Both the position numbers and the translations under genes were made by a program. From Vermamoeba vermiformis (taxonomy: Eukaryota), in contig JBEWZL010000066.1 of NCBI GenBank assembly GCA_045837725.1, forward strand, positions 248,001-312,000: 64,000 nucleotides of DNA. The letters are read 5' to 3'. The notes under the pieces were generated by a model. The model was not told the origin of the DNA and searched no databases. It saw only the letters and a program-made list of their open reading frames with translations. This document shows positions 3,442-5,616 of the stretch, in pieces; the first letter of the stretch is position 1; the number at the start of each line of letters is the position of its first letter.

Positions 3442-4181
3442 TTAGGGTAGGATCCTTTGGACTTCTTCTTTAAGTTTTGCACCCAAAGCAGCTCGGCCAG
3501 GTTTCGTCTCTTCCTCAACAATTTGGTCAACTAACGAACTAACGGTAGGAGGGACGACCTCCTTTTTCGGAGTCTTGTGGGTGACGTCAACCTTATTTCC
3601 GTCTCCCACTGATGCTAAGTGATCGATGTGCTCAAAATTGTTTGTTTTTCTATTTACAAGTTAGCGAGCTTCGAACATCATTAATTTACTTGCCTAGAAT
3701 TGTCGGAAGAGTTTCTGAAAGTGTCTCCACCCTTCATAACAGGCACCTGGTTATTGTTGTTGTTTGTCCCCTCTGGCTTCTGTTTGCGGATCGGGGGTGA
3801 GTTTGCCTCGGTGGTGCGATTTGCTTGATTCTTAAGTAGATCATCACAATATGCTTTCAGCTCTTCATATTTCTTTTTCCAGTTTGTACGCTCCTGTTGC
3901 TTTCTGCGAAAACTTTGAGAAAACACATAAATTAATCTGTTTTCTTACCCGTCGTTCTCAGAGGAAGGCTTAGAGGGTACTATGAACAACGTTAATGGCT
4001 TTTTAATCTGGTAAGTAGGTCTTAGTTTTATGGGTGCTTTTTTATCAGCTTCTCGAAGCTGGGCTTCGTCTCCACCTATCTGCTGTAGAAAGTCACTAAT
4101 TGAAGTGCCAAATGGCACCGAGTCGACGTATTCTTGTTTTGAGGTGGTAAAAAAATATTTAACTTCGATTGTTGTTGTCAT
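3442..4181 (-). CDS. 219-aa protein: possible ubiquitin-like N-terminal domain, short coiled coil, N-rich linker and RHIM-like motif (putative adaptor/sensor)
   Basis: Exons 4181-3949, 3912-3694 and 3649-3442 total 660 nt and stay in frame; the second intron is GC-AG. Motif IDHLASVGDGNKVDV lies at 3627-3583. Confidence 0.7.
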
Positions 4182-4283
4182 GTTGGCATTTGTCAAGGAA
4201 AATCAAACTCGAGCACTTTTTCTGCCGTCCTTCGCTGACGCCAATATTTGTATTTTCAAGCTCTGGCAAGACCACTGCACCTC
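4182..4283. promoter_or_regulatory. Putative bidirectional promoter of the RHIM-like gene pair
   Basis: Only ~100 bp separate the divergent ATGs at 4181 (-) and 4284 (+). Confidence 0.5.
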
Positions 4284-5616
4284 ATGAGGTAATACTTTTA
4301 CAAAGTATTCCAATGCTAACTTTTATTTTCCAAGTTCGAAATTCAACTTTGAAAACGCGACTATTAAACATCTCGGAAGTGTTGGAGATAACAACAACGT
4401 CACAGTCAAGATGGGAGAAATAAACGATGAGACAACGACCTTAAATTCTAGTGGGCAAGTGACTTTAATTATCACCTTGAATTTTGTAATTAACAACTCT
4501 AAAGGGACAAAGCTTTGTCAATCTGTGTCATCTGCGCACTTGACGAGGAGGCTCAAGCTGTACAAGATGTCTTTGCAAAAGCGCAGCAACTGACTTGGCA
4601 AAATGGAACAACCCGTAGTGGCTTCTCTTACAAAAAAACCACTTTTGCTGATCTGGCAAATCAGCCTCTATCAGTTTCCCTGTTTGGCTTGAGCAAGATG
4701 GGTCACAAAGTTATACAAAGTTTGGCAAATATTCTAACAGAGTTCAATCCGGACTACGCTATAATGACTGGAGTCTGTGCTGGTTGCAAAGGAGAAGATG
4801 TCAGATTAGGTGATATTTTTGTTGCTGACAAGGCGTGGGCAGTTGTAGGAAAGGCAAGTCAAGAATCATTCAAATCGGAGGCAGCAACTATACAAATTAG
4901 AGAAGGTCTTGCAACGTTCTTGGCGAGCTTGATCCGTGAAGACTCCGTTGAGAAGATTTGCCAAACAATCCGCCCAAGACCAGAGCCAAAGACATTGCGC
5001 ATTCTAAAATTTCTACACGCTGTCCGTGAAGGTAAAGGAGTTGATCAGCATAGATTGCAAGAGTTGCGTCAGGCAATTTGGCCAGAATTGATTGACACAC
5101 AGCAGTGGAGTGCATTTTTTACCAAAGATTTACGGCCATATCTGCATCTTGCTGATAAGACATTTACTCTGCGCGAAGAGTCTGAGCGGAAACTAGAAGA
5201 GGCTGAGCTGGTTGAGGGGCCTATTGACAAGCAGACACAGTAAGCAATACAACTGTTATCAAGATTTAAACTAATCAGACATTAGTCGGCCAGTAAAAGC
5301 TTTCTTAGCCCCTGTTGCTGGTTTTGTTGATGGAGTCCATGCTGATATGGACAAATGGTGGCCAGTATTGCAAAATGTAAACCGCAAAGTTGCTGCCATA
5401 GAAATGGAATCTGGAGTTTTCTTCGAGACTGTACACAGTTACAATTCATCAAACCGTCGTATGTCCAAGCCATGTGACTTCATCTTTGTTAAGGGTGTGA
5501 TGGATAATGGTGATGCTAACAAAGATGACTCCTTTAAAACCTATGCTGCAGAGGTTTCTGCAGCATTTGCATTTGCCTTTCTTAAACAAGCAGCTTGGCG
5601 AGCACATAATTTTTGA
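4284..5616 (+). CDS. 396-aa nucleoside phosphorylase (PNP_UDP_1 / MTA-SAH nucleosidase-like) effector with N-terminal RHIM-like motif
   Basis: Exons 4284-4288, 4335-4454, 4505-5239 and 5286-5616 total 1191 nt. Motifs: ICALDEEAQAV, KMG, AIMTGVCAG, VRLGDIFVAD, AIEMESG, VKGVMDNGD..KDDSFK.YAAEVSAAF. N-terminus: MSSKFNFENATIKHLGSVGDNNNVTVKMG. Confidence 0.85.

Follow-up and report, generated by a model that had tools for sequence, protein, structure and literature searches.

Two divergent genes of the amoeba Vermamoeba vermiformis, standing head-to-head at positions 3442-5616 of a 64,000-nucleotide stretch of contig JBEWZL010000066.1 (termed here the window), encode proteins that share a short peptide motif and little else. 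One gene, on the plus strand, encodes a protein of the PNP_UDP family (the PNP protein) with the motif at its N-terminus; the other, on the minus strand, encodes a small protein that carries the motif in its C-terminal part. As far as the proteins can be judged from their sequences, the best reading is that motif-mediated co-assembly, possibly amyloid-like, controls an effector of the ATP-nucleosidase type, and we consider this plausible but unproven. The pair would then be a two-gene module with the hallmarks of cell-autonomous immunity.

The shared motif

The two motif cores, IKHLGSVGDNNNVTV (4363-4407, plus strand) and IDHLASVGDGNKVDV (3627-3583, minus strand), lie where a preliminary description of this DNA had placed them, are identical at 10 of 15 positions and are both preceded by NFE. 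When NFE and a two-residue gap are included, the motif is about 20 residues long with 13 of 19 aligned residues identical, and a candidate consensus can be written as about N-F-E-x(1-3)-I-x-H-L-[GA]-S-V-G-D-x-N-x-V-x-V. Exon 2 of the PNP gene translates as SKFNFENATIKHLGSVGDNNNVTVKMGE... and the last exon of the small gene as RKTNNFEHIDHLASVGDGNKVDVTHK..., which places the motif at residues 6-26 of 396 in the PNP protein and 151-170 of 216 in the small protein. In character it consists of strand-like I/L/V stretches around a G-S-V-G-D-x-N turn, set amid otherwise unstructured polar sequence; N, G, V, I and Q together make up 11 of 21 residues in the first copy and 8 of 19 in the second, and proline is absent. 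Six loose patterns, run in all six frames over the full 64 kb, found only these two copies in the window.

Aligned locally (Smith-Waterman), the two spliced proteins match best over exactly the motif; in 5000 shuffles of the small protein, the score of 54 was attained 16 times (Gumbel p = 0.0023). The significance of this test is strengthened because the intron phase and position are identical before both motifs. Each motif exon follows a phase-2 intron that splits an AG/N codon exactly 10 nt upstream of the N-F-E codons, the exons starting AG/T TCG AAA TTC AAC TTT GAA in the plus-strand gene and AG/A AAA ACA AAC AAT TTT GAG in the minus-strand gene; the minus-strand intron is verified by RNA and the plus-strand intron is predicted. 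At two to three introns per gene, such a coincidence of position and phase is unlikely, on a rough estimate well below 1 in 100. The shared phase and offset point to a putative ancestral exon from which both motif exons would derive.

At the nucleotide level the two copies are far apart. Ten of the 13 identical residues differ in codon (for example Ser AGT versus TCA, and Leu CTC versus TTA), nucleotide identity over the 19 codons is 33 of 57, and the proportion of synonymous differences is high relative to that of non-synonymous differences (pS 0.92 versus pN 0.29). Between the two motif exons there is no inverted repeat or other DNA repeat, and their DNA aligns poorly. What has stayed alike is thus the peptide and, if the two motifs are homologous, selection would have held the peptide while silent sites became saturated. 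Recent duplication, gene conversion and an assembly artefact are excluded by the codon divergence and the lack of a DNA repeat.

The PNP_UDP protein

Exon 3 of the PNP gene passes the Pfam family PNP_UDP_1 (27.2 bits against a cut-off of 25.1; expectation value E 3.2e-6), and exons 3 and 4 both align to the relative P0006 (E 2e-22 and 3e-12; BLASTP), both halves of the PNP_UDP fold being present. A HMMER search of 1.84 billion representative sequences returned 286 relatives at E<=0.001, 19 of them at E<=1e-10, the best having an E of 5.5e-27 and 31% identity. The alignment with these relatives takes in a helical insert, an I-E-M-E-S block and a K-D-D-S-x-x-T-Y-A-A block. In the closest relatives (P0003, P0005, P0006, P0012, P0020 and P0031) the insert is a conserved helical region of about 100 residues inside the PNP_UDP fold, e.g. 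...KRQQRDWLLERL..., and the PNP protein of the window bears it at the same place.

The relatives of the protein include some of defence type. The PADLOC family PDC-M60C matches exon 3 at 1e-13 and exon 4 at 1.1e-8, and the PADLOC family for the CBASS PN-superfamily effector matches the PNP exons at 1.4e-6 and 3.6e-6. Among the 10 top relatives, Pfam domains are arranged as TIR_2+PNP+NB-ARC+TPR, TIR_2+PNP and EAD8+NACHT...PNP in one protein each, the others being HTH+PNP, PNP+TPR, PNP with a sub-threshold AAA_22 domain, and four with PNP only. Against the Protein Data Bank (PDB), the sole match of exon 3 is a housekeeping MTA nucleosidase (E 0.043), and exon 4 has none. The preliminary description had named PNP_UDP as an immune effector-type domain, an assignment with which the PADLOC matches, the HMMER relatives and the TIR, NB-ARC and NACHT fusions all agree; grouped by such matches rather than by a tree with housekeeping outgroups, the enzyme likely belongs with the defence-type PNPs.

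What such domains do has been described for several members of the defence-type group. Cap17, DtcC, a fungal NLR domain and a sponge death-domain protein are reported to have ATP/dATP N-glycosidase activity and to be toxic in Escherichia coli, and eukaryotic homologues of Cap17-like PNPs keep ATP cleavage (bioRxiv 2023.01.24.525353). In fungi, PNP_UDP is a known effector associated with amyloid motifs, namely PUASM, an HRAM-like motif, PP and sigma (PMC9815663). The PNP protein of the window differs from its own relatives in its N-terminus, where a 42-residue extension bears the motif. The motif occurs in 0 of the 150 PNP relatives listed; since it is absent from them, it is probably a lineage-specific N-terminal appendage and no part of the PNP family.

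The small protein

The small protein is built of a small N-terminal domain, a polar linker, the motif and a helical tail, and it matched no Pfam family and no PADLOC family. For exon 1, AlphaFold2 (AF2) predicts the order strand-strand-helix-helix ... strand at low confidence (predicted local distance difference test, pLDDT, 54). Foldseek gave 0 matches to this N-terminal domain model in the PDB at E<=0.001, while the ESM Atlas offered unnamed viral clusters (0.91-0.92) and beta-grasp families (0.85), which serve as leads only. A ubiquitin-like fold was considered for this domain and is unsupported. In the AF2 model of the last exon as a monomer, two helices come after a motif segment that lacks regular structure (pLDDT 68.5); this counts as weak evidence for co-assembly.

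Transcription and splicing of the pair

Contigs from three public runs (X1, X2 and X5) match positions 3390-5673 at no less than 99%. They omit short segments with intron ends and are therefore derived from spliced RNA; since they skip introns, they were counted as RNA. Four introns are confirmed by these contigs, two of them with GC-AG junctions. The head-to-head pair of the preliminary description is real on this evidence, both genes being transcribed and spliced in the same runs. The plus-strand gene joins 4288 to 4335, 4454 to 4505 and 5239 to 5286 to give 396 codons. The minus-strand gene joins 3949 to 3903 and 3694 to 3649, and its product counts 216 amino acids in place of the 219 given at first. 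The start codons lie at 4181-4179 (minus strand) and 4284-4286 (plus strand); the 102 nt between them, earlier put at about 100 bp, contain no ATG in 4182-4283. All features of the pair are collected in table 1.

Two of the proposed junctions are covered by contigs. The junction 4455-4504 is seen in all three runs, and 3693-3650 on the minus strand holds in part, being spliced in one of the two covering runs (X2) and retained in the other (X1). The intron predicted ahead of the PNP motif exon (4289-4334) is 46 nt long with a GC content of 0.26, compared with 44-50 nt and 0.28-0.34 for the four verified introns, and it holds a ctaac element. For the plus-strand gene, the contigs of all three runs start at 4334 or 4336, within 1-2 bases of the predicted acceptor; a branch of the assembly graph at this point would produce such starts, which are no proof. 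Unspliced, the ATG at 4284 opens a frame of two codons, and the first ATG in the motif frame is the one at 4408.

Some further observations concern the introns and the samples. Retention of intron 3693-3650 could reflect either a regulated isoform or pre-mRNA. GC..AG ends, in both cases with G/GCAAGT as donor context, occur in two of the four RNA-verified introns (4455-4504 and 3650-3693), each of which borders a motif exon; this share is much larger than the about 1% that GC..AG introns usually make up in eukaryotes. Runs X1 and X2 are filed under one organism label and X5 under another, the transcripts being identical with no differing letters listed, and a raw polyA run with the same label as X1 (X11) had 0 reads placed at about 2% sampling. 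These observations suggest that the amoeba is a passenger in those RNA samples rather than the labelled organism.

Table 1. Features of the divergent gene pair, with positions in the window.
Feature	Position	Strand	Evidence
PNP gene exon 1 (ATG + 2 bases), predicted	4284..4288	+	First ATG past the divergent start; no RNA contig coverage
PNP gene intron 1, predicted, GT..AG, 46 nt, phase 2	4289..4334	+	Size and GC like verified introns; joint itself not seen
PNP gene exon 2, N-terminal extension bearing the motif	4335..4454	+	Translation; X1, X2 and X5 contigs
PNP gene intron 2, GC..AG, 50 nt	4455..4504	+	Joint 4453>4504, cut ambiguous by 2 bases, 3/3 runs
PNP gene exon 3, N-terminal half of PNP_UDP and inserted helical region	4505..5239	+	Pfam, PADLOC, HMMER
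PNP gene intron 3, GT..AG, 46 nt	5240..5285	+	Joint in 3/3 runs
PNP gene exon 4, C-terminal half of PNP_UDP, stop codon	5286..5616	+	BLASTP (match spans the IEMES and KDDS..TYAA blocks), PADLOC
Small gene exon 1, N-terminal globular domain, no known family	3949..4181	-	Open reading frame (ORF); contigs extend to 4151 and 4169
Small gene intron 1, GT..AG, 45 nt	3904..3948	-	Joint in 2/2 covering runs
Small gene exon 2, helix and N-rich linker	3694..3903	-	ORF, contigs, spliced translation
Small gene intron 2, GC..AG, 44 nt, phase 2	3650..3693	-	Spliced in X2 contig, retained in X1 contig
Small gene exon 3, motif and helical tail, stop codon	3442..3649	-	Translation; X2 contig extends to 3390
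Motif copy 1, NFENATIKHLGSVGDNNNVTV	4345..4407	+	Translation, six-frame scan, alignment
Motif copy 2, NFEHIDHLASVGDGNKVDV	3583..3639	-	Translation, six-frame scan, alignment
Putative shared divergent promoter region, 102 nt	4182..4283	.	Lies between both start codons

Comparison with known amyloid signalling systems

The description of the motif as RHIM-like is not supported. The two copies read L-G-S-V-G-D and L-A-S-V-G-D, have neither Q nor a G-phi-Q-phi-G pattern, and match no RHIM in Pfam or the PDB. In place of the RHIM core tetrad [IV]-Q-[IVL]-G there are GSVG and ASVG, with only two residues between the small residues. A V-G-D-N-N stretch does resemble the residues that follow the core tetrad of RIPK3. 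The G-phi-Q-phi-G pattern is shared by RHIM, PP and BASS3 (bioRxiv 2020.01.06.895854), and the VQVG tetrad of RIPK3 is required (PMC7618891). Compared with the RIPK1/RIPK3 RHIM necrosome, the pair in the window also lacks a kinase, in addition to the replacement of its tetrad by GSVG/ASVG.

Searches with the two motif peptides outside RHIM gave a similar result. The PUASM pattern FxGxGxQxxGxGxF is absent from both. A phmmer search of the whole PDB at E<=10 retrieved alphaRep and a dehydrogenase for one peptide and nothing for the other; chains of RHIM or HET-s were not among the matches. The match of the motif peptide P0001 (4363-4440) is weak and is to a turn of designed alphaRep/HEAT-like repeats, L-G-x-I-G-D-x-x-x-V, with a whole-chain E of 0.1 and single stretches that are not significant. 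A helical alphaRep/HEAT-like nature of the motif was set aside, as AF2 places no helix in the motif of the small protein, which is the copy that was folded; the match itself comes from the PNP copy. The alphaRep match is a reminder that short resemblances, such as that to RHIM, are cheap.

Generic aggregation scales discriminate amyloid signalling motifs poorly (PMC8086366; bioRxiv 2020.01.06.895854). Bacterial BASS motifs contain many Q, N, G, V and I residues and few P, K and L residues (bioRxiv 2020.01.06.895854), and the composition of the two motifs here leans the same way. Pairs are sought by their geometry, which links the C-terminal part of one protein to the N-terminus of the neighbouring gene's product (PMC9815663; bioRxiv 2020.01.06.895854). 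This geometry is present in the window, where the motif lies in the C-terminal part of the small protein and at the N-terminus of the PNP protein encoded by the adjacent gene. Domain scans of the exons confirm two peculiarities noted earlier, namely that the motif is N-terminal on the effector and that its partner is not an NLR; there is no NACHT or NB-ARC domain in the exons of the pair, nor in 20 other ORFs of the window that were scanned.

Set beside particular systems, the pair is similar in layout and different in parts. It resembles the fungal PNP_UDP/NLR pairs (PUASM, HRAM-like NLR12, PP and sigma; PMC9815663) in its adjacent genes, in a motif shared between a C-terminal and an N-terminal position, and in a PNP_UDP partner. 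In those fungal pairs, however, the motif is C-terminal on PNP_UDP and N-terminal on the NACHT/NB-ARC receptor (PMC9815663), whereas here it is N-terminal on PNP; the partner is a protein of 216 amino acids without a NOD domain, and the host is an amoebozoan rather than a filamentous fungus. With HET-S/NWD2 of Podospora anserina (PMC9815663) the pair has in common a two-gene cluster and a partner that is proposed to template and activate its neighbour's motif. HET-S has a pore-forming HeLo domain and two motif pseudo-repeats, and NWD2 is an NLR, while the amoebal proteins carry one copy each and combine an enzymatic effector with no NLR.

The bacterial Bell/BASS-NLR pairs, which include the RHIM-like BASS3 (bioRxiv 2020.01.06.895854), are likewise encoded by adjacent genes and have motifs of about 20-25 residues that are rich in N, G, V and I and free of P. 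The difference lies in the core, which is G-phi-Q-phi-G in BASS3, RHIM and PP and G/A-S-V-G-D here; the comparison with BASS1-10 was made by general properties only. Finally, the PNP protein is like Cap17 of CBASS and DtcC of Detocs (bioRxiv 2023.01.24.525353) in its PNP_UDP fold, its PADLOC match and its immune-type relatives. In Cap17 and DtcC, activation comes from a SAVED or receiver domain that belongs to the enzyme's own polypeptide, while the sole added element here is the 42-residue extension with the motif.

Searches for orthologues

A degenerate DNA pattern of the motif had three matches in metagenome contigs, three in prokaryote genomes and none in viral contigs. The three metagenome matches were dismissed as chance: one runs antisense to a methyltransferase-like bacterial ORF (the one match whose ORF context was examined), and two lie on GC-rich contigs without other likeness. 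The three prokaryote matches are of the same kinds and were also dismissed as chance, the methyltransferase-antisense match recurring among them. A word search with exon 3 of the PNP gene at near lengths gave 0 matches. The literature search found no publication linking amyloid signalling motifs to Amoebozoa.

Proposed mechanism and alternatives

The proposed mechanism can be divided into four steps. Both genes would be expressed from the 102-nt region between their start codons, acting as a divergent promoter. The motifs of the two proteins would then bind each other in a homotypic co-assembly, most specifically by cross-beta, amyloid-like stacking. Co-assembly would bring the PNP domains together and so switch the nucleosidase on, and the active nucleosidase would deplete ATP, its presumed substrate, in an infected or stressed cell. 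Induced proximity is a common on-switch for this class of effector in fusions with NOD, SAVED or receiver domains, as judged from the architectures of the relatives and from bioRxiv 2023.01.24.525353. Homotypic contact of the motifs, in its amyloid-like version and together with activation of the nucleosidase, is a tentative proposal that we hold to be possible and short of probable. The fuller claim, that an NLR-independent, prion-like functional-amyloid pair with a new motif family and reversed topology exists in Amoebozoa, the small protein templating the N-terminus of an ATP-nucleosidase, is doubtful.

Several results weigh against amyloid-like co-assembly. Against Pfam-A, with its models of amyloid motifs (HET-s, sigma, PP and RHIM), both peptides match 0 families at E<=10, and the motif has several charged residues and no Q. 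Where a motif is N-terminal, its carrier is expected to be a NOD protein (NACHT or NB-ARC) with repeats, and here it is a PNP_UDP enzyme; none of 26 scanned ORF and exon translations of the window has a NACHT, NB-ARC or TIR domain. On the RNA side, the junction from 4288 to 4335, which is needed for translation of the motif on PNP, has no contig coverage, and in the X1 contig, which keeps intron 3693-3650, the frame of the small gene stops ahead of the motif. Word searches with the motif peptide at longer lengths gave 0 matches among 10 candidates at E<=10, the listed PNP relatives lack the motif, and no orthologous pair, further carrier or NLR with the motif was retrieved in the searches made. 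A p of about 0.002 is by itself moderate, and not decisive in a scan of many windows; the evidence base is one pair at one locus in a single 64-kb window.

By its position the small protein could equally be a downstream or an inhibitory partner, as the N-terminal motif sits on the side that NLRs occupy in the known pairs. An inhibitory, non-amyloid coupling is one form of this: the small protein would bind the N-terminal motif of PNP and block its self-association, in the manner of an antitoxin, a guard or a viral RHIM decoy, and its loss or modification would free the enzyme. A potentially toxic PNP of defence type needs restraint, PNP domains being toxic in E. coli (bioRxiv 2023.01.24.525353), and co-expression from a divergent promoter would suit a stoichiometric pair, as would contig depths near 2:1 in two runs, depth being a poor measure. 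The charged motif without the Q/N ladder of RHIM-type cores fits inhibition too, and retention of the intron would give a small protein without the motif, a possible regulatory switch. The small protein, however, shows no detectable antitoxin-like, protease-related or ubiquitin-related family, and we regard inhibition as unlikely.

No joint function at all is an explanation that we would also call improbable. The likeness would then be due to chance, or would go back to an old duplication of an exon whose copies were retained for unrelated reasons, or else the PNP motif would go untranslated, with a start at ATG 4408. It is favoured by the modest pairwise p-value (about 0.002) in view of the many windows scanned, by the unobserved first junction of the PNP gene, by other short resemblances that are equally weak (such as the alphaRep/HEAT-like one at E 0.1), and by searches that brought up no further carrier. 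Against it stand the same intron phase and offset at both motifs, and the identity of 13 of 19 residues while synonymous sites are saturated. An untranslated PNP motif is at odds with the place of ATG 4284 as the first past the divergent start, with the resemblance of the predicted intron to the verified ones and with the contigs of three runs that start at its acceptor. Moreover, such motifs are known to control PNP_UDP domains (PMC9815663). Least likely is third-factor docking, in which the motifs would bind, in place of each other, a hub encoded elsewhere (such as a kinase, a ligase or an NLR-like sensor that also carries the motif), with both proteins as its clients or effectors. This would agree with the lack of a recognisable sensor domain in either protein of the pair and is opposed by the lack of a third motif carrier within the 64-kb window.

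Neighbourhood and other features of the window

The pair is flanked by a beta-adaptin gene (Adaptin_N, B2-adapt-app_C) on one side and by Nup85 and ARM-repeat genes on the other. Ten further long ORFs of the window have SAM, PB1/PAS, zinc-finger, ARM or kinase domains, or none, in the domain scan. The protist origin that was proposed for this DNA is confirmed by a dihydrouridine synthase in the window that shares 87% identity with the representative of a protein cluster built at 90% identity; a Vermamoeba vermiformis entry of EukProt belongs to the same cluster, and the next named matches have 36-48% identity. The G+C content at third codon positions (GC3) is 0.32-0.51 in both genes of the pair versus 0.62-0.73 in the flanking adaptin and Nup85 ORFs. 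The low GC3 marks the pair as a compositional unit, and fits low or inducible expression, or a later arrival.

Other features lie apart from the pair. The 12-mer GTGACACCTGTC has 22 occurrences with at most one mismatch, against 0.38 expected from shuffles; they span 2154-35878 (e.g. 2933-2944, 2960-2971, 9954-9965 and 24283-24294), with none beyond 35.9 kb. All nine exact copies (9/9) are on the sense strand of long ORFs and translate in frame as V-T-P-V, and the 12-mer could be an exonic word or an in-frame insert. G+C content per 2 kb is about 0.47-0.57 in 1-36000, the pair excepted, versus about 0.40-0.48 in 36000-64000, the 12-mer being confined to the left part. At 12409-13872 on the plus strand there is a low-complexity ORF of 487 codons, rich in K, T, N and S, with tandem units such as NKETKTTD and an AT skew of 0.345.

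Significance

Little is known of the cell-autonomous defences of free-living amoebae, which host giant viruses and intracellular bacteria. In filamentous fungi and multicellular bacteria, amyloid-templated signalling between neighbouring genes is documented, as is RHIM signalling in animals. If the motifs of this gene pair do co-assemble in an amyloid-like manner, amyloid-based immune signalling would extend beyond animals, fungi and multicellular bacteria, which would help to judge whether prion-like signalling arose earlier, or has been reinvented more often, than has been thought. The pair would also offer a minimal and testable model for the control of PNP effectors through oligomerisation by a short homotypic motif. 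If the motif proves instead to be a plain binding peptide or the contact site of an inhibitor, the two genes would still form a compact module, like that of a toxin and its regulator, in a eukaryote.

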